This document shows positions 4,425-60,105 of a stretch of 64,000 nucleotides of DNA, in pieces. The translations under genes were made by a program, and so were the position numbers. The notes under the pieces are model-generated. The model had not been told where the DNA came from, did not search any database, and saw only the letters and a list, made by a program, of their open reading frames with translations. The stretch covers positions 411-64,410 of the forward strand of contig DASWVC010000054.1 of assembly GCA_036401335.1 (NCBI GenBank), written 5' to 3'. Each line of letters begins with the position of its first letter. Position 1 is the first letter of the stretch. The DNA comes from Chthoniobacterales bacterium. GTDB taxonomy: Bacteria > Verrucomicrobiota > Verrucomicrobiia > Chthoniobacterales > JAFAMB01.

Positions 4425-4436
4425 CGGGCTGCGGCC

Positions 4437-4519
4437 CGGTAGGGTGGCGAGTCCCTTCGCCGCCGCGGGGGGTGAGGCGGGCCGCTAAAGGAGGGCGGTT
4501 GGGGACAAGCTCCCTTGCC
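4437..4519 (+). repeat. GGACAAGCTCCC intergenic repeat element, copy 1 (module A plus core)
   Basis: Module A: CGGTAGGGTGGCGAGTCCCTTCGCCGC. Core: GGGCGGTTGGGGACAAGCTCCCTTGCC. Related copies are at 31663, 33880, 50974 and 60350. Lies between the convergent dltB and dltD. Confidence 0.8.
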
Positions 4520-4581
4520 AGGCATGCGCGACCCTAGCCGTTCTTACACCCCGACACCCCGACATGCGCTTCCCGGGCGTT

Positions 4582-8047: not shown

Positions 8048-8776
8048 TTACCCCGCAACCGCTGCCAGTTGGGCACTATCGTCTTTTTTGCCCTCCTGCG
8101 TTGCCCCGTAAATCGCATCCACGAGTTTTTGCAGAATCACCCGGATGGCACGAATGGCGTCATCGTTCCCGGCGATTGGGTAAGTAACTTTTTCAGGATC
8201 GGCGTTCGTGTCAACAATCGCAATCGTCGGGATCTTAAGGCGAAGTGCTTCCGCCACCGCGATGGATTCGCGGGTGGTGTCAATGATCACCAGCGCGTCC
8301 GGCAACCGGTCCATGGTCCGGATGCCTTCAAGGTTCCGGCGCAGTTTTTCAGCTTCGCGCCGTAGAGCCGAGAGCTCCTGCTTGCCCATTTTCGAGTATT
8401 CCGGCGACTTTTCAATCTGCTCAAGGTACGTGAGGCGACCCACGCTCTTTCGAATCGTGGTCAGGTTCGTCAACGTGCCGCCCAGCCACCGCTGGTTCAC
8501 ATAGAATTGCCCGCAGGCTTCCGCTGCTTCCTTGACCGCTTCCTGTGCCTGCTTCTTGCAACCGATAAAAAGCACCTTGCCGCCCTGGCGCGTCACCTCG
8601 GCCAGGTAGTCCGTCGCCGTTTGCAATTGCTCGACCGTCTTGGACAGATTGATGATGTAAATCGAATTGCGCTGCTCAAAGATGAATGGTTTCATCTTCG
8701 GGTTCCAACGCTTGGTCTGGTGTCCAAAGTGAACTCCTGCTTCCAGAAGTTCAGTCATTAATTCCATCGAAGACAT
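8048..8776 (-). CDS. rpsB: 30S ribosomal protein S2
   Basis: 242 aa. [19 protein letters not shown] and [13 protein letters not shown] motifs. Confidence 0.95.
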
Positions 8777-34344: not shown

Positions 34345-37300
34345 ATGGCCAAGGCAGTCCATTCCCGCAAGAACGCCATCACGATTCGGGGCGCCCGTCA
34401 GAACAATTTGAAGGGCATCGACCTTGACCTTGCGTTGTACCAGATGCACGTCGTGACCGGCCCGAGCGGGAGCGGCAAATCCAGCTTGGCCTTCGACACC
34501 ATCTACGCAGAAGGCCAGCGCCGTTACGTGGAAACGTTCTCGCCGTACACACGGCAGTTTCTCGAACGCATGGATAAGCCGGCGGTTGACGAGATTTCAG
34601 GCATCCCGCCCGCGATCGCCATCGAGCAAGGGACCCGCGTCCGCACGACCCGATCCACGGTCGGGACGATGACGGAAATCAACGATTACCTGAAGCTCCT
34701 GATGGCGCGGGCAGCGTCGGCCTTTTGTCCCAGCTGCCAGCGGCAGGTTGTGCCGGAATCCGCCGAATCAATTACCACCGAAGTCTTGGCCCGGCTCGCC
34801 GATAAAACGGTCTTGGTCACCTTCGGGGTGCCCGCGCCGCCCGGGACCAGGGCAGCCGACTTTTTCGGATTCCTCCACCAGCAAGGGTTCGTGCGGGTGT
34901 TCCTGGAGGGAGACGTTAAGCGAACCGACCAACCTGAAAGCGTCAAACGCGTGCCCGGGTTGGTGCCGGTGATCCAGGACCGGCTGACGGTCGGCGAGGG
35001 TTCACGGGCGCGTCTGACCGAAGCGATCGAGGGCTCCCTGAAATACGGCAAAGGCCTGGTCAACGTGATCACCCTCGAACCCGTGGCCGATCACCGGTTT
35101 TCAGTGGGCTGGCATTGTCCGGATTGCGACCTGGACATCCGGCCACCGTCGCCTGGTCTTTTCTCGTTCAACAACCCGCTGGGAGCCTGCCCGGCCTGCC
35201 GCGGCTTTGGGCGCACCATCGGCATTGACCTCGATCGAGCCCTGCCAGACCGGTCCCGCAGCCTTGCGGAAGGTGTGGTAAAGCCGTTCCAGAGCGGCCA
35301 GATGCGCGAATGCCAGCATGACCTGCTGAATCGGGCCCGGGATCGCGGCGTCGACATCCATGCCCCGTTCAGCGGGCTGCCCGCTCCCGACCAGGAATGG
35401 GTCGTTAACGGGGATCGTCGACCGGACGTGTCGCTGGAAGAACTCTGGGAAAGCGGCGGGTGGTACGGGGTGCGCGGTTTTTTTGAGTGGATGGAGGCAC
35501 GCACCTACAAAATGCACGTGCGGGTGTTTCTGAGCCGGTACCGGGCGTACACTTTGTGTGAAACCTGCCGGGGCACCCGTTTCAAGCCGGAGACGCTTAA
35601 CTATGCCCTGGTGATTTCGGACCGGCGTTACACCCTGCCGGACCTGCAGAACCTGCCGGTGGCCGAGTTGGTTCAGACCATGCAGCAGTGCCCGCTGAAC
35701 CCTGCCGACACGAACGTCGAAATGCTTCGCGGCCAGGTCGTGACCCGGCTTCAATACCTGGTCGACGTGGGGCTGGGCTACCTTACCCTGGACCGTTCGA
35801 CGCGGTCCCTGTCCGGCGGCGAAGTGCAACGCGTTAACCTCACCACTTGCCTGGGTGCATCGCTGGTAAATACCCTTTTCGTGTTGGACGAACCGAGCGT
35901 CGGGTTGCACCCGCGAGACGTCGACCGCCTCGTTCAGGTGCTTCATGGACTGCGCAACAAGGGCAACACGCTCCTCGTCGTGGAACACGAGGAAGCCGTG
36001 ATGCGCGCGGCGGATAACCTGATCGAAATCGGTCCGGGCCGAGGTGAGCACGGCGGCAAACTGGTGTTTGAAGGTTGCGCGGACCGGTTGCATGAAGCAC
36101 CGGCCGAATCGTTGACCGCGGCCTACCTGCTCGGCCGGAAACGGATTCCTTCCGACCGGGGCCGGCGGGTGCCCAAGCAGTTTATCGAGGTGGTGGGTGC
36201 GCGCGAACACAACCTCAAGAACCTGCATGCCCGGATCCCGCTCGGGGTGTTTTGCGCGGTCACCGGGGTCTCCGGCTCCGGCAAAAGCACCCTCATCCAG
36301 AATGTGTTGTACGAGAACCTGATCCGCCTCAAGGGCCAGGCCAGCGAGGAACTCCCGGGGTTGTGCGACCGCATCACCGGCGCGCACCTGGTTGATGAGG
36401 TGATGCTCGTCGACCAGTCGCCACTCGGGCGTTCCCCGCGGTCAACCCCGGCCGTTTACATCGGCATTTTTGACCGTATCCGGGAAATGTTTGCCGCGAC
36501 CCCCGAGGCGGAAGCGGCCTCGCTGACGCCGGGCGTGTTCTCGTTTAACTCCGGCACCGGGCGATGCGACCGTTGTGCCGGCCTCGGGTACGAGAAAGTG
36601 GAGATGCAGTTCCTCAGCGACCAGTACGTGCGGTGCGCCGAATGTGAAGGCAAACGCTACCAACCGCACGTGCTTGAAGTAAAACTGGCCGGCAAAAACA
36701 TTTTTGAGATCCTTCAGCTCACGGTCACCGAAGCCATGGATTTTTTCCGGCCGCTGCCGTTCGGCGACACCGTTCAACCTCCCCTGGAGCTGCTGCGGCA
36801 AGTCGGGCTCGGCTACCTGCGGCTTGGCCAACCGGTGAACGTGTTGTCAGGCGGCGAATCGCAGCGGCTGAAGTTGGTGGGTCACCTGACGGAAAAGACC
36901 AAACAAAACCAAAATGCGCTGCTTATCTTTGATGAGCCAACCACAGGACTGCACTTTGACGACATTGCAGTTCTCCTGGAGACCTTTCACCGTTTGGTTG
37001 AGCGTGGCAACAGCCTGCTCGTGATCGAACACAACCTGGACGTGCTCCAATCGGCCGACTACCTGCTCGACCTCGGCCCGGAAGCCGGGGAACAGGGCGG
37101 CACGATGGTGGCTGCGGGCACGCCTGAAGAGGTGGCGCGGGTCGAAGCCTCGCACACCGGCCGTTTCCTGCGCGAACGGTTCAGCCGGAAGGGGCAGGTC
37201 TACCCCACGGCCCGGACCCGTCCCAAGACGACGGCCGTCTTGCCGCCCGTCATCTCCCTCCATGGCGCCCGGCATCACAACCTGAAAAACGTTTCCGTCC

Positions 37301-44617: not shown

Positions 44618-44932
44618 GGCGAGGATCGAGAAGCCGGGAAATCTGGCCACACAATTCCGTTGCCGGGACCCGCATCCTGTCCCATGGTTCAACACCGTCA
44701 GGGACTATGGATCGTAGACACGCGAACCCCGCCAGGGCAGGAATGCAGCAACGGTAGTGTGCTTTGCGTTGCCGTAGTTCTCTGACGGCTTTTTTTGACT
44801 TTTTGACGGGATGTCTGGCAAATGTTGAAACTCACGGTCAGTAGTGCCCCGACGCCTTCCTTCCCGAATCGCTGAACCTTGTTGCAGGGTTCCAACCGAA
44901 GCAGCCAACCTGCGCCGCCGCGAAAAGAAAGG

Positions 44933-45348: not shown

Positions 45349-47634
45349 TTGAATTTCGCCGGGAGCCTGTTTTCTCTGGAGAGATTGGAAACAGAGCTCA
45401 CGATCCTTAGTGGCCTTACGCCCCGGACGCACGCGGTGACTGGAACGAGCGTCCTTGGGCGGGCAGCGGAAGCCGACGTGGTCTTGCCTCACCCGGAGAT
45501 CTCACGTCGTCATTGCCGGATTCTGCAGGTCGAAACGCGTTGGTACGTCGAAGACCTCGGGAGCCAGCGCGGCACTTTCCTCAATGACGCCCGCATCGGC
45601 GGACGGATGGAGCTTCATCCTGGCGACCGCCTGACCCTGGGCCCCGTCGTCCTGGTTTTCGGTCAGGCTGCCGTGCCTTCCGAGGCCGCCGAAACCGTCA
45701 AGGGGCGGATGCGCGTCAACGGGCAACTGACGAACGTCATTCCACTAGGGAAAACGATTGTTTTGGGTCGAGGAGAAGACGTGGACGTGCAGCTCAATGA
45801 CACAGCCATCTCCCGCCAGCATGCCCGTATCCAGAAAGAGAGCCAAGGGTACCGCATCTTCGACCTGCACAGCAAAGCGGGTTCTTTTGTCAACGGACGA
45901 CGGTTTGATGAACACGCCCTGGTGATCGGTGACCAGGTTCAGATCGGGCCTTTTTGTTTCGTTTTTGACGGACGCCAACTTGCGCGGATTCACCGATTGG
46001 CATCCGGGCGCATCCTTGCCCGTAACCTGGCAAAAACGGGCGGCAGCACGTTGATCCTGAAAAACGTCTCCTTTAGCGCCACGCAGGGCCAATTTATCGG
46101 CATTCTGGGACCAAGCGGCGCCGGCAAAACCACGCTGCTGAACGCCCTTTCAGGCCTTCGCCCGGCCGACACCGGACAGGTCCTGGTAGACGGCACCGAC
46201 TACTACGCCCACCTCGACGACCTGAGGGCTAAGTTCGGTTACGTCCCCCAGGACGACATCGTGCACGCTGAGTTGACGCTGCAACAAGCCTTGTCCTTCG
46301 CCGCTCGCCTCCGGCTTCCCGCCGGCACGCCGCGGCCCGAAATCCGCACCCTGATCTCCCACACGGTCGAGCAACTCGGATTGTCCGAACGTGCCGGGGT
46401 CCGGATCGGGCAGCTTTCCGGCGGGCAGCGCAAACGGGCCAGCGTGGCTGCGGAATTGCTGAACCGGCCGTCCCTGTTGTTTCTCGACGAACCTACCTCC
46501 GGCCTGGATCCGCTGGCCGAATTCCGGCTGATGGAGCTCCTGCGACGGTTGGCAGACACCGGTTGCACCGTCATCTGCACCACGCACGTGATGGAAAACG
46601 TGTACCTGATGGACGAGATCGCCGTCCTGGTCGAAGGCCAGCTCATTTTCCAGGGCGCGCCAGATGCCGCGCGCGCGCACTTCAACGTCAGCCGGCTCAG
46701 CGGGCTCTACGACGCGCTCCAGTCACCTGATTGCACCAGCCTGAGCCCTTTCGAGCCTCCCATCCCTGACGAAACCACGACCGAGACCCGTACCTTCCCC
46801 AAGAAAGAGCGCCGGGCTGCCTCGCTGCCCATTTTGTTGGAGCGGCAAGCAGCCATCTTTCGGGCCGACCCTAAGAATCTTTGGATCGTGCTCGGGCAAC
46901 CCGTTCTGATCGGCGCGTTGGTGGCCTGGGCCAGCCAGTCCGCTCCGCTGGCCCAATTCTTTGCCTACATCACCACCCTCTGGTTCGGTTGCAGCAACTC
47001 GGCCCAGGAAATTGTGCGGGAGCTGCCCATTTACCGGAGGGAACGCCTGGTCGGCCTGGGCCGATGGAGTTACCTGCTGGCGAAGCTGGTGTGGATGGGC
47101 GGCCTGACGTCACTGCAGGTGGCGCTGCTGTTTCTCATCATTACCCTGGTCGGACCGGTCGGGCCTGGACTTTGGCCCCTTCAACTGGCCAGCCTTGTCC
47201 TCCTGGCGTTTGCCGCCACCGGCATCGGCCTCACGGTCTCCACCCTGGCCAGGTCTCCCCTCCAGGCCATGATGCTGGTTCCCATGATCCTCATTCCCCA
47301 GATCCTTTTTTCAGGGTTTACCGTGCCGGTCGGTGACATGGCGTCCACGGTTTTGCCCGTGAGCAAGGTCTTTCCAAGTTTTGCCGCAGAACGCATTGTG
47401 GATTGCAGTTTCATCCTCGGAAAACCGATCACGGGGGATCTGGTCCGCGATTTCTCCACCGCTTACCAAAACCTGAACCAGTGGCAGCGCCAAAGCCGGC
47501 GGCCTCGTCTGATGAATGGCGCCCGTTTCGAAGACACCACGCCGGTGCTTCTGAGCTTCCTTAACCTGAGCCTCTGGACGGCCGGGGGCTTTTTGGCCTC
47601 CTCGGTTTTGCTGGCCCGGAAGGAACGAGGGTGA
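45349..47634 (+). CDS. FHA-FHA-ABC transporter fusion (ATPase plus ABC-2/ABCG-like permease)
   Basis: 761 aa. Two FHA cores (GR..EADVVLPHPEISRRHCRI...GSQRGTFLN and GRGEDVDVQLNDTAISRQHARI...HSKAGSFVNG). Walker A GPSGAGKTT, signature LSGGQRKR, Walker B LLFLDEPTSGLD, then about 6 TM helices. Confidence 0.82.
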   Translation: MNFAGSLFSLERLETELTILSGLTPRTHAVTGTSVLGRAAEADVVLPHPEISRRHCRILQVETRWYVEDLGSQRGTFLNDARIGGRMELHPGDRLTLGPVVLVFGQAAVPSEAAETVKGRMRVNGQLTNVIPLGKTIVLGRGEDVDVQLNDTAISRQHARIQKESQGYRIFDLHSKAGSFVNGRRFDEHALVIGDQVQIGPFCFVFDGRQLARIHRLASGRILARNLAKTGGSTLILKNVSFSATQGQFIGILGPSGAGKTTLLNALSGLRPADTGQVLVDGTDYYAHLDDLRAKFGYVPQDDIVHAELTLQQALSFAARLRLPAGTPRPEIRTLISHTVEQLGLSERAGVRIGQLSGGQRKRASVAAELLNRPSLLFLDEPTSGLDPLAEFRLMELLRRLADTGCTVICTTHVMENVYLMDEIAVLVEGQLIFQGAPDAARAHFNVSRLSGLYDALQSPDCTSLSPFEPPIPDETTTETRTFPKKERRAASLPILLERQAAIFRADPKNLWIVLGQPVLIGALVAWASQSAPLAQFFAYITTLWFGCSNSAQEIVRELPIYRRERLVGLGRWSYLLAKLVWMGGLTSLQVALLFLIITLVGPVGPGLWPLQLASLVLLAFAATGIGLTVSTLARSPLQAMMLVPMILIPQILFSGFTVPVGDMASTVLPVSKVFPSFAAERIVDCSFILGKPITGDLVRDFSTAYQNLNQWQRQSRRPRLMNGARFEDTTPVLLSFLNLSLWTAGGFLASSVLLARKERG

Positions 47635-47697: not shown

Positions 47698-48669
47698 TTA
47701 CAAGTTTCCCATGCGGGAATCGCTTTCCCGCCCCTCGGACCGCTCGCGCGGTGGAGATTCCAACCCATTCACCCCTAACACCCGTACCCCCTGCTGTTTG
47801 CCTTTAAGCTGGAATTGGCCGAGATCCACGAGGTCGCGCCCTGGCGGCAGGACCGTTCCAAAATCCTGGGACAGCACCAGGTTGCGGTTCAATTCTTTCA
47901 TCACACCTTCCAACCGGAACGCCGTGTTCACGGCATCCCCGATGATCGTCGCGTCACGCATCGCGACCTGGCCGATGTTGCCACTGGTCACGCGCCCAAA
48001 ATGGAGGGCGATGCCCACCCGAAACGACTGTCCGGTTTCCGGCCAGCTCCGCTTGGCAGCCAACTCAAGCAACGTCGCAGCGACGTCCAGGCAGGTGGCA
48101 CACTCGGTGCCTTGTTGATCGCGTGCAGGCCAGTAGGCAAGCACGGCGTCGCCGATGTATTTGTCGATGATGCCGCCGGCCGATTGGACTGCATTGCCAA
48201 TGTCGCGAAACCAATTCCCGAGCACTAACGCGAGCTGACGCTCTTCCAGCCTTTCCGCCATGGCGCTGAAGCCGCGGATGTCGCAAACGAGGATGGCCAC
48301 CGACAAGGAGGCATGCTGCCCCTCCAAGCTCAGGGCGGCCAACGTGATGTCCGTAGCCTCACCGGGTTCTTCGTCCAGGGTTTGCTCGAAAATCAGTTCG
48401 TAATTGGCAATGCGCACCCGCGCACCGGACTGGAGCACAACCGGCATCACCACCCGCTGATCATTAACGTAAGTCCCATTGCGACTGCCCAGGTCCATGA
48501 TCTGATATTCGTACCCATTGTGACAGCGGACGATCGCATGCTGCCGGGATACGTGGGTACCTGGCAACGACACCGTATTATCGAGGGTACGCCCGATGGT
48601 CGCAGTGTTGCTTACAACCTGTTCGAACAACGGCTCACCTGGCGAGTAGACGCGAAACCTTGCGGGCAT
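47698..48669 (-). CDS. FHA-domain class III adenylate/guanylate cyclase
   Basis: ORF 47698-48795; start moved to MPARFRVY (48669) because the longer version would overlap the riboswitch. FHA core IGRTLDNTVSLPGTHVSRQHAIV...GSRNGTYVN. Cyclase blocks VAILVCDIRGFSAM and IGDAVLAYW. Confidence 0.78.
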   Translation of the reverse strand: MPARFRVYSPGEPLFEQVVSNTATIGRTLDNTVSLPGTHVSRQHAIVRCHNGYEYQIMDLGSRNGTYVNDQRVVMPVVLQSGARVRIANYELIFEQTLDEEPGEATDITLAALSLEGQHASLSVAILVCDIRGFSAMAERLEERQLALVLGNWFRDIGNAVQSAGGIIDKYIGDAVLAYWPARDQQGTECATCLDVAATLLELAAKRSWPETGQSFRVGIALHFGRVTSGNIGQVAMRDATIIGDAVNTAFRLEGVMKELNRNLVLSQDFGTVLPPGRDLVDLGQFQLKGKQQGVRVLGVNGLESPPRERSEGRESDSRMGNL

Positions 48670-48786
48670 GGCAGGCCACAAAAATGCCAGCTTACCACCC
48701 TGTTTGCCAGTCTCTTTAGAGTAAGGCGGATCGCTGAGGTCAATTTCTTGTTGACGCTCCCCCTGGGTGCCCGTAATTTCGGCCCA

Positions 48787-48900
48787 CTCCATCAAGAGTA
48801 GCAGAGGGACTGGCCCGTTGAAGCTACGGCAACCGGTTCGGCGAAAGCCGAACGCCCAGGTGCCAAATCCAGCCTTGAGAAATCAAGGGCAGATGGTGAG
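48787..48900 (+). promoter_or_regulatory. SAM-I (S-box) riboswitch
   Basis: Hallmark strings GAGGGACTGGCCC (48804-48816), GGCAACC (48828-48834) and GGTGCCAAATCCAGC (48859-48873). P3 hairpin GGTTCGGC-GAAA-GCCGAAC (48835-48853). P4 hairpin CCTTGA-GAAA-TCAAGG (48873-48888). P1 CTCCATC (48787-48793) pairs with GATGGTGAG (48892-48900). Lies directly upstream of the thrC-like gene. Confidence 0.78.
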
Positions 48901-48948
48901 CAATGCGTGTCTATCCGCGGCTCTTGGTGGGTACCCTACACCCGCCCT

Positions 48949-50208
48949 ATGGATAAACGCCCCAACTTTTCGCACTTGCAATGTCGTGAGTGCGGCCGTC
49001 GGTACCCCAAAGAAGCCATTCACGTTTGCGAGTTTGACTTTGGACCGCTCGAGGCAGCCTACGACTACGAGGCCATCAAGGCCGTTGTCTCCCGGGATCT
49101 CATCGCCCAACGGCCCCGATCCATGTGGCGGTACCGCGAGCTTCTTCCGATCGAAGGGCAGCCGTCTGTTGGGTTGCAAACCGGATGCACTCCGTTGGTG
49201 CGGGCCAAGCGCTTGGCTGAAAGGTTGGGAGTCAGCGAACTTTATATAAAGAATGATGCCGTAAACCATCCCACCTTGTCCTTCAAGGACCGGGTGGTAT
49301 CTGTGGCGCTCACCCGTGCCAAGGAACTCGGACTCGACACGGTCGCCTGTGCGTCAACCGGCAACCTGGCGAATTCGGTGGCCGCCAATGCAGCCGCAGC
49401 CGGTCTCCGCAGCTTTGTCCTGATCCCGGCCGACCTGGAGCCGAGCAAAGTGGTGAACTCACTCATTTACGGCACCAACGTCGTGGGCGTTCGGGGCTCC
49501 TACGATCAGGTCAACCGGTTGTGCGCTGAGGTTGCCGGTAAATTTGGGTGGGGGTTTGTGAACGTAAACCTTCGCCCTTACTATGCCGAAGGGTCGAAAA
49601 CCTTGGGGTTCGAGGTCGTAGAACAACTCGGTTGGAAGTTGCCGCAACATACCGTGGTGTGCATGGCCAGCGGTTCATTGCTGACCAAGGTTCACAAAGC
49701 CTATAAAGAATTCGTGCAGGTGGGCTTGGTTGACGACACGCCGACCTGCATCTACGGCGCTCAGGCCAGCGGCTGTTCACCCATCACCACGGCCATCAAA
49801 AACAAAAGCGAGGTTGTCCGGCCCGTGCCAAACCCCCGGACAATCGCCAAATCGTTGTCCATTGGGACCCCCGCAGATGGGTACTACGCCATCCGCACGA
49901 TGGAGGAGACCGGTGGGACCGGCGAAGACGCCTCGGATCCCGAAATCATCGAAGGCATCAAATTGCTCGCTGAAACGGAGGGCATTTTTGCTGAAACGGC
50001 GGGCGGTGTGACCGTCGCCTGTGCGAAAAAATTGATCGAGGCAGGTAAAATTCCGCGTGACGAAAGCATCGTCCTTTGCATCACCGGCTATGGCCTTAAA
50101 ACGCAGGAGGCCATCGTCGAACACGTGGGACGCCCCCACTACATCCAGCCGCAACTGCGCGAGTTCGAAGCATTGATCTCTGAACAATCCACTCTTTCCC
50201 CTAAATAA
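48949..50208 (+). CDS. threonine synthase homologue (PLP enzyme; candidate sulfur-carrier-dependent homocysteine synthase)
   Basis: ORF from GTG 48907; ATG 48949 preferred. N-terminal Zn-ribbon-like CRECG...VCEF. PLP-lysine motif HPTLSFKDR. Glycine-rich GNLANS loop. Confidence 0.8.
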   Translation: MDKRPNFSHLQCRECGRRYPKEAIHVCEFDFGPLEAAYDYEAIKAVVSRDLIAQRPRSMWRYRELLPIEGQPSVGLQTGCTPLVRAKRLAERLGVSELYIKNDAVNHPTLSFKDRVVSVALTRAKELGLDTVACASTGNLANSVAANAAAAGLRSFVLIPADLEPSKVVNSLIYGTNVVGVRGSYDQVNRLCAEVAGKFGWGFVNVNLRPYYAEGSKTLGFEVVEQLGWKLPQHTVVCMASGSLLTKVHKAYKEFVQVGLVDDTPTCIYGAQASGCSPITTAIKNKSEVVRPVPNPRTIAKSLSIGTPADGYYAIRTMEETGGTGEDASDPEIIEGIKLLAETEGIFAETAGGVTVACAKKLIEAGKIPRDESIVLCITGYGLKTQEAIVEHVGRPHYIQPQLREFEALISEQSTLSPK

Positions 50209-50216
50209 TACCTGTC

Positions 50217-50492
50217 ATGCCTGTCCCTGTTCGTATCCCTACCCCGCTCCGCAAGTTGACCGACAACCAGGAGGTCGTCCAAGTCAACGGAGCTAACATT
50301 CGCGAAGTCATCAACAGCCTCGAATCCGCGTTTCCCGGGTTGAAAGAACGCATCTGCGACGATAAAAACCAGATCCGCCGCTTTGTGAATGTGTTCGTCA
50401 ACGAAGAAGACATCCGCTTCCTGCAGGATTCCGAGACCCCGGTGAAAAGCGGAGACGAGATTAGCATTGTCCCGGCCATTGCGGGCGGGTAA
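50217..50492 (+). CDS. MoaD/ThiS-family ubiquitin-like sulfur carrier protein
   Basis: 91 aa, ending in ...SIVPAIAGG (C-terminal Gly-Gly). Starts 8 nt after the thrC-like stop. Confidence 0.75.
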   Translation: MPVPVRIPTPLRKLTDNQEVVQVNGANIREVINSLESAFPGLKERICDDKNQIRRFVNVFVNEEDIRFLQDSETPVKSGDEISIVPAIAGG

Positions 50493-50973
50493 ATCCGTCC
50501 CAGCCCCTTTTTTCTGTTCTGGTTAAGCTAGTGCTGGAAACGCGGCCGGGGCCCCCTTACCGTGTTCTTGAGCGGAGCACAAGTCCAGAGACGGACCTGG
50601 TCCCCGGGTCTGGCCCTCTCCACTCCGGGGCTGCCGTGGGGCCGAACACAACCTCATGGTTTACTCCTGATCCCCCACCTTTTCCCGTGAGGGTTCCTGG
50701 TCCGCGGTTTCCGGCCGCGAGGTGCCGCTCTCCGGTTGGTCATCCACGGCGCCGTCCTTGCCTCCATCCGGTTCGTCTCTCAAAGTGCTCATGGTTAATG
50801 ATCGCGGCGCGTTTTCGCAACGCCTTGCCCCAGAAGCCTTTTTTCGGTTTTTAGGCCGCTACCATAAACCCGTCCCGGAGGCACCCTGTTGCAGGTAACA
50901 TAAGGAAACCATGATGCGGCCAAAGCGTCGGTTGTCCCCAACCGACTACGGGATTGAGGCGGACCACGATCCC

Positions 50974-51676: not shown

Positions 51677-51914
51677 GGCTACTTGAATCGCTCGCCCACG
51701 GAGAAAAGCTCGTGGAAGATGGCGGTTCCAGGTCAAACATTTTTGTGTGTTGTTACGGTAGGTTTAAGTAGGTTCAGCCGGCACAGTTTATAAAATTTGT
51801 CTCTTAACATCGACTGGCCGAAAAGGTGCTTCTAAATACGCCTCTCAATGGGCGTTATTGCGGCACAAGGGCCGTTCGCGACCAGCGACAAAACAAAGGC
51901 GTCGTCCCAGACCG

Positions 51915-53504
51915 ATGAGGAATGAGCAAACGGCAGAAATCGGAAACGGGCTGAGAACCCACACGGTCTTTACACACGTGCTGGTGGAAAAAGCGGAACT
52001 TTACCGCATGATCCTCGAGGGCTTTGTTCGGGCACGCGAGCAGTTCATTACCCACCTACGACCAGCGGAGGTTGCGCGTGAGATCGGGTGCAACGACGAG
52101 GAAGCGGAGAACGCCTTGCGCAAACTCCAGCAATGGGGAAACGTTGAAGCCACCCAGGATTCGGCTGAAGCCGTTTCAATCGACGAATTTTACCGGAGCC
52201 GGTTCCTTTACGCGCTTTCGGCGGCGGGCGAAGCGGCTGAGCGGGCGCTGGCGATTTTCGAAGAAACGCTGCATCGGCCCGGAGAGTTGCAAACGGCAGC
52301 ATTGCGCGACATCACCGAATTCCTTGAAGGCATCCGGGTCCTGTTGGCCGGCGCGGAACCTGACGTGCCCAAATTGCACACGCAATTGTTGGGTTTGACC
52401 GAGCGCTTCCGGAACCTGACGAACCGGGCGCAGGCTTTCATGCGAGATCTCCAGAGCACGGTGCAGCTTCACGGGATGAGCGTGGAACAGTTCCTCGGGT
52501 ACAAACAGCTGCTGATCGACTACCTGGAACGGTTCCTACGAGACCTCGTGCTCGCCACCAATGAGATTTCCCAGAAGATCCTGCTTCTCGAGCAAGCGGG
52601 CATCCGTGATCAATTCGGGCCGGTGGCACGGCGTTCGTTGGCCGATGCCCTGACCCGTACGCGGGAGATGGAAGAGCGGGAAATCGCAAGCTGGGAAGGG
52701 CGCTGGCACGGGTTGCGGCGTTGGTTCCTGGGCGAACCGGGCGTCCTTTCGCAGTCCGAGATTCTCCGAGCACGCGCCCGGGAGGCAATCCCTGCCCTGC
52801 TTTTTACGTTGCAGAACATCAACGATCAGCGCGTCACCCGGAGCGACCGCTTTACCGACTGGCAGACGCTTGCGGTCTGGTTTGCGGAGACCGCCACCGA
52901 TGAAGAGGCGCACCGTCTCTGGCGGGTGGCGTTCGGGCTGGCACCGGCGAGGCACCTCCAGATCAATCAGGAGACACTTGACCTCTGGGACCAGGCGGGT
53001 GACGGACCGCGGACGCCATGGCTGGCGGCGGAGCCCCTCCGGATCAGCCCGCGCCTGCGCGTGAACGGACGTTTGGTGGTCCGAAGCCAGGCCACGGCGG
53101 TCGTAGATCGGGGCAGAGAGAAGGCGGAGCTCGCTCGTCTGGCTGCCGACGAAGCGGTGCAGATTGCCCGCGCACAGCGGGAACTGGCGCTTAACCGACC
53201 GCTGCGCCTGACGGATTTCGGCAGATTGGACACTCCGGCGTTTTACCTTTTGCTTGACCTGCTGGGAGAGGCGCTGGCGATGCGGACCGACCCTCGCGAA
53301 CCCGTGGAAGCTGCCTCAATGGATGGCGCGCTGCTCGTTCGTCTCGGCCCGGAGGACGACCCAGTGCGTTTGGCCGAGATCGTTACCACCACCGGCGTGC
53401 TGCGCGGGCCCGATTGCGAAGTGACAATTTCGTATGCTCACCTTACCCCGGCCGCCAAGATGGTGGCCGGGGAATCAAGGTGGCCGGAGGCGCCGGGGCT
53501 ATAA
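51915..53504 (+). CDS. jetA: JetA-like subunit (TIGR02677/DUF2397-like) of an SMC-type defence operon
   Basis: ORF 51858-53504; start taken at MRNEQ (51915). Helical, with no catalytic motif. N-terminal FTHVLVEKAELYRMILEGF resembles, from memory, the DUF2397 N-terminus. First gene of the four-gene operon. Confidence 0.6.
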   Translation: MRNEQTAEIGNGLRTHTVFTHVLVEKAELYRMILEGFVRAREQFITHLRPAEVAREIGCNDEEAENALRKLQQWGNVEATQDSAEAVSIDEFYRSRFLYALSAAGEAAERALAIFEETLHRPGELQTAALRDITEFLEGIRVLLAGAEPDVPKLHTQLLGLTERFRNLTNRAQAFMRDLQSTVQLHGMSVEQFLGYKQLLIDYLERFLRDLVLATNEISQKILLLEQAGIRDQFGPVARRSLADALTRTREMEEREIASWEGRWHGLRRWFLGEPGVLSQSEILRARAREAIPALLFTLQNINDQRVTRSDRFTDWQTLAVWFAETATDEEAHRLWRVAFGLAPARHLQINQETLDLWDQAGDGPRTPWLAAEPLRISPRLRVNGRLVVRSQATAVVDRGREKAELARLAADEAVQIARAQRELALNRPLRLTDFGRLDTPAFYLLLDLLGEALAMRTDPREPVEAASMDGALLVRLGPEDDPVRLAEIVTTTGVLRGPDCEVTISYAHLTPAAKMVAGESRWPEAPGL

Positions 53505-53505
53505 C

Positions 53506-54810
53506 GTGTTAAGCGACCCAGATCGTATGGCCGACCGGAGGTCCCTTCCGGGTGCAAGCACGGGGCGGCCGACGCGCCAACGGCTGGCTGGGCTGGGATC
53601 AACCATTAACGCGCAAGAGCGGGACGAGCGTCAACGCGCCGTCCGCGCACTTCTGAGCGAGCCGCTGCTTTCCCCGGGAGGTTCAGAGGCGTTTACCCTT
53701 GTACAGAAGCACCGGGACTTTCTGCGTCTCTGGTTTGCCCACCACGCAGGCTGGCAGCTCGTTCTGGACGCAGAATCCGCTCGACTGATCAAACGACCCG
53801 CCCGGCTTGACGACGCGACGCGCCCCTGCCGCGAGCCCAACTCCGGGGCTGCGCTGAGCAGGCGCGCCTACGTGATTCTCTGCCTTGCCTTGGCGTCACT
53901 GGTGCGCGCCGATCGTCAGACGACTTTGATCCGGCTGCGAGACTTGATCCTTGGCCTCGTCCGAACCGAACCGCGGTTGGCCGCGGCAGGCCTTAGAATT
54001 GAACTCGACCACCAGGAATCGCGCCGGGATTTTGTGCATGCCATTCGCCTGCTCCTGGCGTGGCGGGTGTTGAAGCGTGTGCAGGGCGAGGAAGAGCATT
54101 TTATCAAAGATGCGGAAACTGACGCCCTCTACAACGTCCACCGGCCCACGCTTGCGCGGTTGCTCGCGGCGAGCCGGCCGCCTTCGCTCGTGAAGGCGCG
54201 AGAATTTCCGGAGCGACTTCGTGCGTTGGCCGAAGACGACCTTGCGGCCAACGCCGAGGAATCGGATCATCGGCACCTGCGGGTCCGTTTGTTCCGCCAG
54301 CTGCTTGACGACCCGGTGTTGTATTACGATGAATTGACCCAGGAAGAGCGGCAATACCTGGACCGGCAGCGCGGCTTTATCCTCCCGGAGATTGAAGCGG
54401 CGACTGGCCTCGTCCGCGAGGTGCGTGCTGAAGGGATCGCCATGGCCGATCCAAGCGGAAAGCTCAGTGACTATGGCCTTCCCGAGGAGGGAACGGACGG
54501 GCACCTTACCCTGTTGCTCGCCACCTTTCTGGCAGCCCGGCTCCGTGAATCGCCGGGCGCAAGCGTCACCTTTGCCGCCTTGGTTGCACGAACGCAGCAG
54601 TTCATCGTCACCCATCACCGCCATTGGCGCAAAGACGTGCGTGATTCCGGTCAGGATCGCGCGCTGACACGCACCGTCGTTGATCGGCTTTCTGCGCTGG
54701 GCCTGGCCCGCTGCGAAGGCGACCGGATCGTTCCCCTTCCGGCCATCGGACGCTACGGACTGCGGGAAGAGAGCGAGCCCGCATGGCCGGACGAAGGAGG
54801 GACGGAGTGA
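53506..54810 (+). CDS. jetB: JetB-like subunit (TIGR02678/DUF2398-like)
   Basis: ORF 53434-54810. Likely start is GTG 53506 (2 nt after the jetA stop) or ATG 53527. LLSEPLLSP...FTLVQKHRDFLRLWFAHHAGWQLVLDAESARLIKRP resembles, from memory, the DUF2398 pattern. No enzymatic motifs. Confidence 0.6.
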   Translation: MLSDPDRMADRRSLPGASTGRPTRQRLAGLGSTINAQERDERQRAVRALLSEPLLSPGGSEAFTLVQKHRDFLRLWFAHHAGWQLVLDAESARLIKRPARLDDATRPCREPNSGAALSRRAYVILCLALASLVRADRQTTLIRLRDLILGLVRTEPRLAAAGLRIELDHQESRRDFVHAIRLLLAWRVLKRVQGEEEHFIKDAETDALYNVHRPTLARLLAASRPPSLVKAREFPERLRALAEDDLAANAEESDHRHLRVRLFRQLLDDPVLYYDELTQEERQYLDRQRGFILPEIEAATGLVREVRAEGIAMADPSGKLSDYGLPEEGTDGHLTLLLATFLAARLRESPGASVTFAALVARTQQFIVTHHRHWRKDVRDSGQDRALTRTVVDRLSALGLARCEGDRIVPLPAIGRYGLREESEPAWPDEGGTE

Positions 54811-57800
54811 GCGACGAACTCTTTGGCGAGCCGTCCGGGGACGGAGCTTTCCCCCCGCGCATTCTCCCACGACCCACCCGGGAACGCTGGCAACCTTTGC
54901 GCAGCGGCCTTCTGAACATTTTCAAGTACGACGAAGAAGAATTCCTTTTTGAGGACGGAAGGCTGCTTCTGCGCGGAAACAATGGTGCCGGAAAATCGCG
55001 CGTGCTGGCGTTGCAGCTTCCCTTCCTGCTCGACGGTGAAATGGCTCCGCACCGGGTCGAGCCGGATGCAGACCCGGCGAAGCGGATGGAATGGAACCTT
55101 CTCATGAACAAACATGAGAACCGCCTTGGCTACACTTGGATCGAATTCGGCCGGCGGGATGCGGACGGTGTTGAGCGGTACCTTACGCTTGGTTGCGGCA
55201 TGCACGCCCGCAAAGGAACCGGCATCCCGCCGAATGGCCGCTGGTTCTTTATTACACCTCGGCGCGTGGGCGCAACGCTCCAACTGCTTTCGGGAAACCG
55301 TGTGCCGCTCAACCGGGAACGGCTCGAGGCAGTGCTGGGGCCAGGGGCGATTTACCGCAGCGCCCGTGAATACCGCGCCGCGGTGGATGCCGCGCTTTTC
55401 GGCCTGGGTGCGCGGTATGAGCCGCTGCTTGAACTGCTGATCCAGCTTCGCAAGCCGCAGATCATGCGGGATTTCAAAGCGGACGACCTGTCACGGCTGT
55501 TGAGTGAAGCCATGCCGCCGCTCTCGACCCGGCTGGTCGAGAACGTCTCGGTGTCGTTCCGCAGTCTGGATACCGATCGCCAGCAGCTTACCGAACTGAC
55601 CGATACGCGCCGCAGCGTGGAAACGTTTCTCAAGAGCTACCAGCATTACGTGCAGGTCGCGGTGCGCCGCCGGGCGGCTGAGGTCCGTGCAACGCACAGC
55701 CGGTTTGAAAGCGTGCAGCGGGAGCTCAAGCGGCTGCGGGACCAGCGTGATCAGATCGCCGCCGACCTGGTTGCTGCAGAGACGGACCAAAGACAGATCG
55801 AGGAGGCGCTGGCGGCGACCCGCGAAGCGGAAAGGACCCTGCTCGCCAGCCCGGAGATGAAAAATGCGGAAGCCTTGCGGCACGCCGCCGAAGCCAAGGA
55901 GGACCGGGTCAAACGCGCCACGGCGGCCGAAGAGTCTGCGCGCGAAGCGCGAAATGCGCACGGCCGGATGCGTCACGAAAGGGAGGAAGCCGAAGGGGTG
56001 GTGATGCGCGAGCGCCAGGCGGCTGATGTCCTCCATGCCGCCTTGACGGATGCTTGGAGATCGGCGGCGCTGGCGGACAACGCGCTGCCGCTGCGCGAAC
56101 CCGCGGAAAAAAATGCACGAACAGATTTTGACCGCACCGTTGCCGAACGCCGGCGGGTCATCCTGATTTTGCGTGAAAACAACTCGGTGGTGGCGCGAAA
56201 CGTTGACTTGCGGAAGCAGGAAGAGATCCGTTTCGAACAGCGGCGCGACGACGTGGCCCGGTGCGAGGAGGCGCTGGCCAATGCCCGAACTGAATGCGGG
56301 CAGGCTTTGGAAGACGCCCTGACCGGCATTCACCAATGGGAAGCGGCGTTGCAACTCTTGCCCATGACGAAAGGAGTGGATTGGCGTGTGCTCCTGGAAC
56401 GGTGGCTCGATGCGACGGGCCGGCCCTCTCCCTTGACCGAATACGTCGAGGCAGCGCATCGCTCGGCCGCGCAGACCGTGTTCGATGCGCGCAGCCGTCA
56501 AAAGACTGCCTTGGCGGAGCAAGCGACCGCGCGAAGGGAAGCGGCGGACGAACTTGACGGCCTCCGCGCCGGCCGTCAACCGGAGCCGCCGACCCCTCAC
56601 ACACGGATGGCTGACGCGCGCGCCGGCCGGCCGGGAGCTCCCTTTTGGAAACTATGCGGCTTTCGTGACCATGTCGCACCGGAGGACCGCGCCGGCTTTG
56701 AGGCAGCAGCCGAAGCGGCAGGGTTGCTCGACGCCTGGTTGACCCCGGACGGCGCGCTGATAAATGCTGGAACGCTCGACTGCTATTTCGTGGCTGCTGA
56801 CGGCCGGCGGGACGCGGGCCTGAACGCGGTGCTGTATGCGGAAGGCGAGATGACCGACGTCGTGGAGCGCGTCCTCGGCTGCATCGGCACCCATGAAAAT
56901 GAAGGCAAGAGCTGGCTTTCCCGTGATGGCCGCTGGCAGCACGGGCTGTTGCGGGGTGCCTGGCGTAAGCCGAAAGCGGAGTACCTCGGCCACGGCGCCC
57001 GTGAAGACGCCCGGCGCCAGCGAATGCAAGAACTCGAATCCGTCCTCGCGGCCATCGATCGTGTGGTCGCGCAGCACCAGCGCGAACTCGAGGACATTGC
57101 CCAGCGGGCAAAGGGGCTCGAGGCGGAACGCGCCGGGGTGCCCAGCCTCGCGCCGTTGCAGCGCGCCGCGCACACCCTGGAAGCTGCCGAACATTCCAGC
57201 GCGGAGGCGCGGGCACGGCTCGACGAGGTTGACCGGCTGCTGGCAACGGCCCGCGAAGGGGAGCGCGGCGCCTGCCAAAGGCGGGATCGAGATGCCGCCG
57301 ATCTTGGCCTGGCGGCGTGGAAAGAACCGGAAGCAGTCAGTCGCTTGGAAACGTTGCTTATCGAAGTCCGCCTGAAGGCGGCTGCGCTCTGGCCGGCCTG
57401 GGACGCTTTGCTTGCTGCAAATGCGGCGTTGTTAAAGGCGGGGATACGCGAACGGGAAGCCCAGCATGCGGCAGAGGCCGTCGCCGGCCGCTACGAGGAA
57501 GCACGGCAACTCGCGGCAGCCGCAACCGCCCACTTTGCCACTCTCCACGCTGCCATCGGGGCAACCGCCGATCAGGTATTGAGCCGGCTCGGCAGCGTGC
57601 GGCGCGAGCTGACCCACCTGGTCGAAGCCGAAAAAACAGGGCACCACCACATTGGAAAACTCAATGTTACCCGGGCCGTGGCCGTGAATGACGGAGAACG
57701 CGCTGAATCCGATCGCGTGGTCCGTGAATTGGAACGCGGCCATGCCATCGCCCGGCTGCAGCTCTTTGCGGAAAAGCGGCTCCTTGAGGAAACGGGCGTG

Positions 57801-58868
57801 AACCTGGGGCCCGATCCCGGGTTGCTGGCGCCCAGCGCGGCAGTGGACCTGGCCCGACAAATCGAGCAGGTTTTTGGGAGCGTTGCGGCGGATGAGGATG
57901 CCTGGAAACGCGTTCAAGCAGGCATCCAGCAGCAGTTCACCCAGCTCAACGACCACCTCGGCGCCCACGGGTACTACCCGCAAGCTGAAGTCGTTGATGA
58001 AGGGGTTTTTGCGATCACCTGCGCCTTTCATGGTCAGACTTGCACCATGACCGCATTGCGCCAGTCAATCTCCGACGAAATCCAGAGCCGCGAGCAGATG
58101 CTGAACGCGAGGGAGCGGGAAGTCATCGAGAACCACCTCATCGGCGAGGTGGCTACGGAGCTGCAGAACCTCATCCGGGCCGGTGAGGATTGGGTCCGCA
58201 CCGTCAATGAGGAGCTGGCCCAGAGGCCGACCAGCAGCGGCATCAAATTGCGCTTTAGTTGGGACGTGGATGCCGAGGCTTCCGCGGGGCTCGACGCAGC
58301 GCGGCGCCAACTGTTGAAAATGACCGCCGCCTGGTCACCGGCTGAACGCGACAGCATCGGGCGTTTTCTTCAGGATCGAATCAATGGTGAAAGGGCAGCG
58401 GATGAAAGCGCACCGTGGCAGGACCACCTGCACCGCGCCCTTGATTACCGGGCATGGCACCGGTTCGGCATCATGCGCTTCCAGGACGGCCAGTGGAAAA
58501 AGCTGACCAAACAGACTTACGGTACCGGCTCGGGTGGGGAGAAAGCCCTGACCCTGATGCTCCCGCAATTTGCCGCCGCGGCCGCGCATTACCGGAGCGC
58601 CTCGCCCCACGCGCCGCGATTGATTCTGCTCGATGAGGTTTTCATCGGCATTGACGCTCCGACCCGGGCACGCCTGATGGGGCTGCTTACGAGCTTTGAA
58701 TTGGATTTTGTGATGACGAGTGAACGCGAATGGGGGTGCTACTCAACCCTTCCGGCGTTGTCGATCTGCCAGCTCGCTTCTCACCCTGACTCACCCGCGG
58801 TTCACGTCACCCGCTGGGTGTGGAATGGACGCCAGTTGTCGACGCACCCCAATGGATCATCCGTCTGA
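54807..58868 (+). CDS. jetC: JetC-like SMC/Rad50-type ABC ATPase (TIGR02680-like)
   Basis: ORF 54783-58868. Preferred start is GTG 54807, overlapping the jetB TGA (GTGA) and preceded by GAAGGAGGG. Walker A GNNGAGKS (54975-54998), signature-like SGGEK (58530-58544), Walker B RLILLDE (58617-58637). About 1170 residues of A/E/R/L/Q-rich coiled coil lie between them, with a central non-heptad segment. Confidence 0.8.
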   Translation: MSDELFGEPSGDGAFPPRILPRPTRERWQPLRSGLLNIFKYDEEEFLFEDGRLLLRGNNGAGKSRVLALQLPFLLDGEMAPHRVEPDADPAKRMEWNLLMNKHENRLGYTWIEFGRRDADGVERYLTLGCGMHARKGTGIPPNGRWFFITPRRVGATLQLLSGNRVPLNRERLEAVLGPGAIYRSAREYRAAVDAALFGLGARYEPLLELLIQLRKPQIMRDFKADDLSRLLSEAMPPLSTRLVENVSVSFRSLDTDRQQLTELTDTRRSVETFLKSYQHYVQVAVRRRAAEVRATHSRFESVQRELKRLRDQRDQIAADLVAAETDQRQIEEALAATREAERTLLASPEMKNAEALRHAAEAKEDRVKRATAAEESAREARNAHGRMRHEREEAEGVVMRERQAADVLHAALTDAWRSAALADNALPLREPAEKNARTDFDRTVAERRRVILILRENNSVVARNVDLRKQEEIRFEQRRDDVARCEEALANARTECGQALEDALTGIHQWEAALQLLPMTKGVDWRVLLERWLDATGRPSPLTEYVEAAHRSAAQTVFDARSRQKTALAEQATARREAADELDGLRAGRQPEPPTPHTRMADARAGRPGAPFWKLCGFRDHVAPEDRAGFEAAAEAAGLLDAWLTPDGALINAGTLDCYFVAADGRRDAGLNAVLYAEGEMTDVVERVLGCIGTHENEGKSWLSRDGRWQHGLLRGAWRKPKAEYLGHGAREDARRQRMQELESVLAAIDRVVAQHQRELEDIAQRAKGLEAERAGVPSLAPLQRAAHTLEAAEHSSAEARARLDEVDRLLATAREGERGACQRRDRDAADLGLAAWKEPEAVSRLETLLIEVRLKAAALWPAWDALLAANAALLKAGIREREAQHAAEAVAGRYEEARQLAAAATAHFATLHAAIGATADQVLSRLGSVRRELTHLVEAEKTGHHHIGKLNVTRAVAVNDGERAESDRVVRELERGHAIARLQLFAEKRLLEETGVNLGPDPGLLAPSAAVDLARQIEQVFGSVAADEDAWKRVQAGIQQQFTQLNDHLGAHGYYPQAEVVDEGVFAITCAFHGQTCTMTALRQSISDEIQSREQMLNAREREVIENHLIGEVATELQNLIRAGEDWVRTVNEELAQRPTSSGIKLRFSWDVDAEASAGLDAARRQLLKMTAAWSPAERDSIGRFLQDRINGERAADESAPWQDHLHRALDYRAWHRFGIMRFQDGQWKKLTKQTYGTGSGGEKALTLMLPQFAAAAAHYRSASPHAPRLILLDEVFIGIDAPTRARLMGLLTSFELDFVMTSEREWGCYSTLPALSICQLASHPDSPAVHVTRWVWNGRQLSTHPNGSSV

Positions 58869-60105
58869 CCCGGAGCGCCTCCGCCTGCTTTTCGACCGCC
58901 CCAGCCTCAGGTGGATTGTCGACCGACTGGCCGTGCGGCAGGCCAGGGAGCGTCCGCTGCGCGGGATCCTGGTGCGTGGAGGCGCCACCGCCGAGGAACG
59001 CCGTGCCGTCGATGACCTCCTCGGCCGGAAGAGCACGACCGGGAACAATCTAAGTCTCACCCTCGAAGCGCTGGAGGAGGCTCTGCGGGAGGCCGGCCTG
59101 CTTCAAGAGTTGGGTGAAGTGGTTACGGCATGCCGCGGGCCGGCGGCAAACCGCCGCGAAGAAGCGGCGCGGCGGCGTTCCGAATGGGATGGGGTATTTG
59201 ACGCGGTCCGGACGCGTTGCGCCGGACGGCCCGGGCTGCTCCGCTGGGTCGATGACGTGCACCGGCAAGGAGTGTTGAAGCGAATGGTCAAAGGTGGCCC
59301 AACGGCCGCTGCCGGCCTCCTTGACCGTGCTCTGAAAGTTATCGAACGGTTTCCCTGCCCAGGCGTTTTGCTCGCCAACCTCGCCGCTGAATGCCTGGGC
59401 GACAGCCATGCCTTGGACCGCGGTCAGCCTGCGGGCACGCTTTGCCTGCGCGCGATCGAGGTTTTACACGGCATTGATGGACTGCGCAGCGCCGATGCGC
59501 GGCGGCAAGCCTGGAGCGCAGCCGGCGTGATCATCGACGATCTCAGCGCTCCGGTCCTCGCCTTCAACCTGCGCGGAACGAGCGGCTCAGCGCTGGAAGC
59601 ATTCCTTGAGCTTTACCGCCGGCACGGCCTGCCGGGATTTTTCACTTACCGCCAGCTTCAAACCTCGGATGCGTTTCTGCCCCTTCATCCCTCGATGCGG
59701 AAGGTCTTTGTCTGCGAAAACCCGAGCGTTGTCAGTGCCGCGGCCCGCGAGATCGGGACCAAGTGCCTTCCCCTGGTCTGCACCAATGGCCAACCCGCCT
59801 CCGCCGTGCACTTGCTTCTGACCCGACTGCAGCAGGCCGGAGCTCAGGTGCATGCGCACGCCGATTTTGACTGGGCAGGGCTGCGCATCGTTGATCAACT
59901 GGTGCGGGAACACGCAGTGCTCCCCTGGCGAATGGACGCGGGGGAATACTTTGCCGCTGCCGGCACCGCGCCTCTGGAGCCGCAGCCCTTTTCCGCAGCC
60001 TGGGCACCAGACTTGTCAGAGGCACTTCGCCGGCGCGGCAAAGCCGTTTTCGAGGAGCAGGTCGTAGGTTCGCTGCTCAGCGACCTTGGCCAGGAACAAA
60101 CCTGA
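58852..60105 (+). CDS. jetD: JetD-like Toprim-type nuclease subunit (TIGR02679/DUF2399-like)
   Basis: ORF 58720-60105; start taken at ATG 58852 (17-nt overlap with jetC; ATG 58825 is an alternative). The C-terminal domain has VFVCENPS (Glu at 59716-59718) and HADFDWAG (Asp at 59863-59865 and 59869-59871), a Toprim-like E...DxD arrangement. Confidence 0.7.
   Translation: MDHPSDPERLRLLFDRPSLRWIVDRLAVRQARERPLRGILVRGGATAEERRAVDDLLGRKSTTGNNLSLTLEALEEALREAGLLQELGEVVTACRGPAANRREEAARRRSEWDGVFDAVRTRCAGRPGLLRWVDDVHRQGVLKRMVKGGPTAAAGLLDRALKVIERFPCPGVLLANLAAECLGDSHALDRGQPAGTLCLRAIEVLHGIDGLRSADARRQAWSAAGVIIDDLSAPVLAFNLRGTSGSALEAFLELYRRHGLPGFFTYRQLQTSDAFLPLHPSMRKVFVCENPSVVSAAAREIGTKCLPLVCTNGQPASAVHLLLTRLQQAGAQVHAHADFDWAGLRIVDQLVREHAVLPWRMDAGEYFAAAGTAPLEPQPFSAAWAPDLSEALRRRGKAVFEEQVVGSLLSDLGQEQT

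Follow-up and report, generated by a model that had tools for sequence, protein, structure and literature searches.

A SAM-I riboswitch-linked ThrC-like enzyme and Gly-Gly carrier of a Chthoniobacterales bacterium as a probable MetM/MetO pair for homocysteine synthesis

Does a gene that is labelled threonine synthase in the databases serve the synthesis of homocysteine? The question is raised by a locus in a metagenome-assembled genome (MAG) of the Chthoniobacterales (Verrucomicrobiota), from which we analysed a stretch of 64,000 nucleotides of contig DASWVC010000054.1, hereafter called the window. Here a pyridoxal 5'-phosphate (PLP) enzyme with the fold of threonine synthase (ThrC) is followed by a small protein that ends in Gly-Gly, and both stand behind an S-adenosylmethionine (SAM)-I riboswitch. 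An earlier note on the sequence had read the pair as a system for homocysteine synthesis rather than as a housekeeping thrC, and this reading is supported by the clade of the enzyme, its linkage to the carrier, the accessory genes of related loci and the riboswitch. With a probability of about 0.8 the two genes form an operon of the MetM/MetO type, shut off by SAM, in which homocysteine synthesis depends on a protein thiocarboxylate.

The known system to which the pair was compared is that of Streptomyces albulus, which the note had named correctly. According to Hasebe et al. 2024 (Appl Environ Microbiol 90:e01247-24; PMC11497804), MetM, which is homologous to ThrC, converts O-phosphohomoserine to homocysteine together with the carrier MetO, the activating enzyme (E1) MoeZ and the hydrolase Mec. 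A GapMind preprint of 2026 describes MetM as a homocysteine synthase that acts on O-phosphohomoserine, depends on MetO-thiocarboxylate and is "often misannotated" as threonine synthase. In addition, a SAM riboswitch lies upstream of S. albulus metM (PMC12172450). The window has the same order of parts, i.e. a ThrC-homologous PLP enzyme and then a Gly-Gly carrier of the ThiS/MoaD family behind a SAM riboswitch. On the other hand, it comes from another phylum, its carrier stops right at Gly-Gly, no E1 or JAMM gene lies close by, the fourth ligand of a zinc-ribbon-like segment is Asp and not Cys, and the riboswitch has an apparent sequestor close to the start codon instead of the terminator of many relatives.

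The enzyme with its TLSFKDR lysine, the carrier and the short gap between them were all found where the note had placed them (Table 1). The stop codon of the enzyme gene and the ATG of the carrier gene are separated by 8 nt, and riboswitch, enzyme and carrier are the only parts of the operon in the window. The layout is not a matter of chance because the same three-part arrangement recurs in related loci of several phyla. A possible terminator at the 3' end is tentative: the hairpin folds with -14.8 kcal/mol, no better than shuffled sequences (z = 0.28), and a scan for consensus terminators did not flag it. A database protein 100% identical to the enzyme is labelled "threonine synthase", and so is every listed homologue that comes with a source name, at 74-97% identity.

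Table 1. Parts of the candidate MetM/MetO operon in window coordinates.
Feature	Coordinates	Strand	Basis
SAM-I riboswitch aptamer (S-box), complete	48786..48899	+	Rfam RF00162
Predicted expression platform	48920..48946	+	anti-P1 element and start-proximal hairpin
MetM-like gene, ThrC-fold PLP enzyme, 419 aa	48949..50208	+	Pfam PALP, TIGR00260, clade membership
MetO-like sulfur-carrier gene, beta-grasp ThiS/MoaD family, 91 aa	50217..50492	+	Pfam ThiS, SAMP1
Possible weak intrinsic terminator (tentative)	50474..50513	+	hairpin across the stop codon, then UUUUUU at 50508-50513

The enzyme matched Pfam PALP with an E-value of 1e-66. Its motif T109-L-S-F-K113-D-R places K113 in alignment with the Schiff-base Lys61 of Thermus thermophilus ThrC. 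Solved relatives were canonical ThrCs only, which cover residues 55-394 with 32-36% identity and a best score of 194 bits; the top Foldseek matches of the AlphaFold model (predicted local distance difference test score 90.5) were likewise ThrC structures of 32-36% identity. Translation from the ATG at 48949 yields 419 residues, within the 417-419 of the homologues; an earlier GTG at 48907 is an improbable start because it is only 8 nt past the aptamer. The N-terminal segment of about 55 residues (48949-49113) is zinc-ribbon-like with the pattern C12-x2-C15 ... C27-x2-D30 and has no counterpart in bacterial ThrC structures. Position 30 is Cys in 57 of 81 sequences and Thr in three cyanobacterial ones; Asp is found in the window and in 18 other sequences from Verrucomicrobiota, Planctomycetota and related MAGs. 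Finally, nine residues at 283-291 are inserted relative to canonical ThrC.

The carrier ends in PAIAGG and thus has a free C-terminal Gly-Gly. As the protein stops directly at this motif no trimming of the C-terminus would be needed. Pfam ThiS was matched with 8.7e-17. The best solved relatives were 4N6E_B, a 90-residue protein of the ThiS/MoaD family (8.7e-20), and 3DWG_C, deposited as Cfp10A of Mycobacterium tuberculosis (4.7e-18), both of which align with the carrier over the full length and have the C-terminal AGG in common with it. We take 4N6E_B to be a CysO-type carrier from a BexX/CysO complex, and 3DWG_C is presumably CysO from the CysM/CysO complex. The moaD equivalog TIGR01682, which has a cutoff of 66.15 bits, gave 20.3; of the MoaD models only the broad subfamily TIGR01687 ('MoaD family protein') was passed, with 51 against 49.5. 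A MoaD score below cutoff and the identity of the nearest structures argue against a role in molybdopterin synthesis, the possibility that the note had named as fatal to its proposal. A molybdopterin MoaD was rejected on these hidden Markov model scores and neighbours in the PDB, no search having been aimed at an adjacent MoaE.

The CysO-type relatives bring up another possibility, namely that the pair makes a different sulfur amino acid, such as cysteine from O-phosphoserine, or that it uses O-acetyl- or O-succinyl-homoserine. SAM riboswitches govern cysteine-to-methionine genes in some bacteria as well, and the phosphate-pocket residues of ThrC are replaced in the clade of the enzyme (see below), so its substrate need not be identical to that of ThrC. 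Yet, the enzyme is ThrC-like and CysM-type models fit it poorly, with 35.5 bits against a cutoff of 394 for TIGR01138 cysM and 35.8 against 344 for cysKM. In the counterpart of the ThrC phosphate loop R209 and N205 do not vary, which is compatible with a phosphate ester as substrate, and the characterised homologous system uses O-phosphohomoserine. We therefore consider a different product or a different activated homoserine very unlikely.

If the small protein donates sulfur to the enzyme, how constant is the pair in other genomes? One genome per species was scanned with an alignment of diverse homologues, which yielded 80 loci with 56-76% identity (numbered with the prefix L). They span at least eight phyla and comprise Verrucomicrobiota, Planctomycetota, Nitrospirota, Nitrospinota, Cyanobacteria, Desulfobacterota-like MAGs, Actinomycetota, Acidobacteriota, Methylomirabilota and others. 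In 77 of these loci the enzyme gene is followed by a carrier homologue in the same orientation, and one of the three exceptions is due to the end of a contig. The carrier ends exactly at Gly-Gly in 54 loci and extends one to six residues beyond it in 13, which implies maturation by a protease. In eight loci it is fused to a NIL domain, in one to a ThiF E1 domain, and in one it is cut by the contig end. The fusion to E1 is located in an Actinomycetota MAG (L038:7217-8284), where the E1 of the ThiF family follows directly after Gly-Gly in the same open reading frame (ORF); close to it are genes for a Prok-JAB protease (4407-4838) and a NIL protein (8291-8533).

Flanking ORFs of the related loci were clustered and then checked with Pfam; the accessory genes that emerged are nearly all on the strand of the operon. 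A NIL-domain protein is present in 32 loci (separate in 24, fused in eight), a ThiF-type E1 in 22, a Prok-JAB (JAMM) protease in 14, TusA in five and an Rrf2 regulator in four. By their predicted functions these genes are the gene set of a protein-thiocarboxylate pathway. Of the activating enzyme and the JAMM protease that the note had proposed to look for, each is encoded in the operon of some related loci and neither in the window. The separate NIL protein is small, about 80-98 residues, and is encoded after the carrier gene (e.g. L011:2070-2366 and L014:7287-7802), whereas the fused form stands behind the Gly-Gly of the carrier. No NIL gene is present in the window or in L002 and L003, its closest relatives. 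We found no literature on a NIL partner of MetM/MetO; NIL/ferredoxin proteins are known from the DUF39 route to homocysteine, which is unrelated.

These data bear on a third possibility, in which the enzyme is a plain O-phosphohomoserine sulfhydrylase working on free sulfide, and the Gly-Gly protein a ubiquitin-like modifier or a regulator. The small protein scored just above the cutoff of the NCBIfam model SAMP1 (63.3 against 60 bits), and SAMPs can also be conjugated to proteins; the window moreover lacks an E1. But the operon linkage to ThiF-type E1, TusA and JAMM genes and the carrier-E1 fusion match the thiocarboxylate paradigm, and the published system needs the thiocarboxylate of MetO. 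Of the readings discussed here we hold free sulfide as the sulfur source to be the least probable.

The note had proposed that phylogeny should separate MetM-like enzymes from true ThrC, and this is what a neighbour-joining tree of 162 sequences, built without bootstrap, displayed. All 81 carrier-linked proteins, that of the window included, fell into one large clade, with the ThrCs of Bacillus subtilis, M. tuberculosis, T. thermophilus and Aquifex aeolicus outside. The solved ThrCs clustered with a second ThrC that is encoded in three Nitrospirota loci (L015:7859-8914, L018:2195-3259 and L043:2016-3086) and is 33-36% identical to the enzyme of the window. In these loci the second gene follows the MetM-like gene at a few hundred nucleotides downstream of the carrier and NIL genes, so that both branches from O-phosphohomoserine appear to be encoded side by side. 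The carrier-linked enzymes represent, as far as the tree and the alignment tell, a clade distinct from canonical ThrC and of the paralogue type.

Column analysis revealed 36 positions that are fixed differently in the carrier-linked clade and in canonical ThrC. The enzyme of the window has the majority residue of the clade at 34 of them, the other two being conservative variants (V for I at 248 and S for A at 304). Differences from T. thermophilus to the window include T88 to L140, S155 to N207 and R160 to Y212; furthermore, the loop G-N-A-G-N of ThrC reads A-S-G-S-L, and S248-W249 is replaced by D310-G311. The substitutions at T88, S155, R160 and in the G-N-A-G-N loop are at least 95% conserved among the 81 carrier-linked proteins. 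The canonical residues at these sites are invariant in seven canonical ThrC sequences, and the enzyme of the window does not have this set. T88, S155 and R160 reportedly hold the phosphate that ThrC keeps as the catalytic base for addition of water at C-beta, and their loss would fit a switch to gamma-replacement. When set against the canonical ThrCs of known structure (T. thermophilus 1UIM, A. aeolicus 2ZSJ, B. subtilis 6CGQ and M. tuberculosis 2D1F), the enzyme thus shares the fold, the lysine motif S-F-K-D-R and probably the substrate, but is set apart by the N-terminal segment, the insertion, the clade-fixed substitutions, the linkage to a carrier and the control by SAM.

The remodelled phosphate pocket (T88L, S155N, R160Y), the change from Cys to Asp in the zinc ribbon and the frequent NIL partner may also be taken as signs that the verrucomicrobial enzyme is no simple orthologue of MetM. 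It might accept another activated substrate, rely on NIL for sulfur delivery or methionine sensing, or constitute the sole route to homocysteine in these phyla. We regard this as unlikely.

A MetM-like gene and a canonical thrC also coexist in Nonomuraea gerenzanensis (L082). In the layout of the window, which is also the published one, this organism has a SAM-I riboswitch, the enzyme and a 91-residue carrier ending in AVAGG, with both proteins 51% identical to those of the window, and the same record encodes a ThrC that is 65% identical to that of M. tuberculosis at a distance of 9 Mb from the MetM-like locus. The record itself (NZ_LT559118.1, 11.85 Mb) is labelled 'plasmid I' and carries 10 annotated features; evidently it is a replicon of chromosome size, and it was used here as a complete genome of an actinobacterium.

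How is the operon controlled? The SAM-I riboswitch that the note had seen upstream of the pair was recovered with Rfam model RF00162 at 81 bits (gathering threshold 44.4, E-value 1.7e-17) over model positions 1-108 of 108. All 14 related loci that were tested first with Rfam have an aptamer immediately ahead of the enzyme gene. A regular expression for the core had under-called it, with many 'partial' cases, and gave way to Rfam and a covariance model of our own. With the model built from these 14 loci SAM-I was detected in 24 of 81 sources including the window, i.e. in 23 of the 80 relatives. By lineage it is present in 11 of 12 Verrucomicrobiota loci with upstream sequence, in six of eight Planctomycetota, in one Acidobacteriota and in several Desulfobacterota-like MAGs. 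In Cyanobacteria and Nitrospirota loci no SAM-I aptamer was detected ahead of the enzyme gene, and 12 sampled loci without SAM-I from these and similar lineages had no other Rfam element there. The absence from cyanobacterial loci agrees with the published lack of a riboswitch at the Microcystis gene (PMC12172450).

A spacer of 49 nt separates the aptamer from the start codon of the enzyme gene. It contains an anti-P1 element, CUCUUGGUGGGU, at about 48920-48932, with complementarity to the 5' strand of P1 (48786-48798). The segment CUCUUGGUGGG pairs with this strand at -15.9 kcal/mol compared to -7.5 kcal/mol for P1 itself, and only 1 of 2000 shuffles of the spacer equalled the anti-P1 duplex. 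Overlapping the element, GGUGGGU (48926-48932) forms a hairpin with ACCCGCC (48940-48946), which ends 2 nt before the AUG and belongs to the minimum free energy fold. Both the anti-P1 segment and the hairpin GGUGGG(U)/(A)CCCGCC are conserved in the closest relative, L003. A scan for consensus terminators found none after the aptamer of the window, and L003 likewise lacks a hairpin with a U-run, while most other relatives have a classical hairpin and U-run 3' of the aptamer. Because of the missing terminator we set aside a transcriptional read-out and favor a sequestor of the start codon. The leader of the window probably follows a sequestor/anti-sequestor design that acts on translation initiation; Rho-dependent termination is an alternative.

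Divergent from the riboswitch lies a gene for an adenylate/guanylate cyclase with an FHA domain (47698-48795, minus strand), and L003 has the same neighbour. Its start is probably further in than the TTG at 48795 because the longest ORF overlaps the first 10 nt of the aptamer.

Several results weigh against the assignment of the pair to homocysteine synthesis. The enzyme passes the thrC equivalog TIGR00260 of NCBIfam with 281.7 bits against a cutoff of 167.1. Neither a Pfam scan of 41 ORFs nor tblastn with the accessory proteins of relatives detected a ThiF/MoeZ-type E1, a JAMM protease, a NIL protein, TusA, homoserine kinase or a second ThrC within the 64 kb of the window. The apparent orthology to S. 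albulus MetM runs over a chain via the Microcystis homologue (L050), to which the enzyme of the window is 60% identical. Searches for a Streptomyces MetM by tblastn of a plasmid collection and by a protein search seeded with the actinobacterial P0126 returned none; the former gave Nonomuraea and the latter only Micromonosporaceae. The other link of the chain comes from a published report (PMC12172450), in which ThrC of M. aeruginosa has 51.6% similarity to S. albulus MetM and the product of the neighbouring gene 47% to MetO. The same report ascribes threonine synthase and threonine deaminase activity in vitro to the Microcystis homologue, and methionine did not rise in vivo.

Could the enzyme then be a genuine, perhaps bifunctional, threonine synthase, with a carrier that serves another pathway and a riboswitch that balances the threonine and methionine branches at O-phosphohomoserine? 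The TIGR00260 score and the activity of the Microcystis homologue are in line with this, as are the features that the enzyme has in common with ThrC, namely fold, PLP lysine and many residues of the active site. However, the broad TIGR00260 model does not separate the MetO-linked clade from canonical ThrC, and the closer, best-scoring equivalog, NF006050/PRK08197, stays below its cutoff (291.1 against 303). A sole ThrC under repression by SAM would starve the cell of threonine. The coupling to the carrier in nearly all loci, the E1 and JAMM genes in the operons of relatives and a distinct clade, in which three of the fixed differences fall on presumed positions of the phosphate pocket, speak against a threonine synthase too, and elsewhere a canonical ThrC coexists in the same locus or genome. 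Hence a threonine synthase is quite unlikely. Judged by sequence, every feature of MetM/MetO that was tested for is present in the pair.

In a MetM/MetO-type pathway the C-terminal Gly-Gly of the carrier would be adenylated and turned into a thiocarboxylate by an E1 of the ThiF/MoeZ type, presumably encoded elsewhere in the genome. The MetM-like enzyme would take O-phospho-L-homoserine at the PLP of K113, and elimination of phosphate would lead to an intermediate of the vinylglycine type. Sulfur from the thiocarboxylate of the carrier would then be added at C-gamma, in place of the water that ThrC adds at C-beta. An acyl shift or hydrolysis would free homocysteine and restore the carrier. Substrate, product and the final release are modelled on the S. 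albulus system and on the precedent of CysM/CysO. At high SAM the aptamer would close P1 and thereby free CUCUUGGUGGGU for the hairpin that abuts the start codon, so that translation initiation would probably be blocked.

CysM/CysO of M. tuberculosis (PDB 3DWG) resembles the pair in combining a PLP enzyme of fold-type II, a phospho-ester amino acid and a carrier thiocarboxylate as the nucleophile. It converts O-phosphoserine to cysteine, while in the window the partner is ThrC-like instead of CysM-like, the expected product is homocysteine and SAM exerts control. Homocysteine is made from a carrier-protein thiocarboxylate by HcyS/MetY with HcyD and HcyF of Wolinella succinogenes (Krishnamoorthy & Begley 2011). 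That system has accessory genes for E1 and protease, as in the loci related to the window. MetY, however, is an O-acetylhomoserine sulfhydrylase of fold-type I, in contrast to the ThrC-like enzyme of fold-type II studied here, the substrate of which is presumably O-phosphohomoserine.

The pair is of a known kind and adds a verrucomicrobial member, in a minimal two-gene form, to the published MetM/MetO system. It opens no new question, since the chemistry and the two genes have already been published. What changes is the annotation of hundreds of verrucomicrobial proteins, 75-100% identical to the enzyme, which are labelled "threonine synthase". When metabolism is reconstructed, this label conceals how Chthoniobacterales and related soil bacteria make methionine. 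A specific annotation model could be made from the residues by which the clade differs from true ThrC. A "unique ThrC lineage" has been described as found only in cyanobacteria (PMC12172450), yet the carrier-linked ThrC lineage is much wider. MetM/MetO pairs extend well past Streptomyces and cyanobacteria, with E1, JAMM, TusA and NIL as a recurring accessory set.

Other features of the window were recorded alongside. Directly downstream of the operon a complete four-gene Wadjet system of type II, an anti-plasmid system, spans 51858-60105 on the plus strand (JetA2, JetB2, JetC2 and JetD2; PADLOC E-values 1e-120 to 0). Its genes carry DUF2397, DUF2398, an SbcC/MukB-like ATPase of 1361 residues, and DUF3323 with DUF2399. 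A gene for a PEP-CTERM protein is downstream of the operon as well. Upstream, a 761-residue protein (45349-47634, plus strand) combines two FHA domains, an ABC (ATP-binding cassette) ATPase and an ABC-2 membrane domain in one chain. A UvrA-like protein of 1837 residues (34345-39858, plus strand), about twice the size of normal UvrA, comprises UvrA interaction and DNA-binding domains together with several ABC/P-loop segments. The small bacterial signal recognition particle RNA was located at 44696-44790 on the plus strand with 61 bits; in L003, too, such an RNA (2335-2429) precedes the operon by a few kb, which indicates local synteny.

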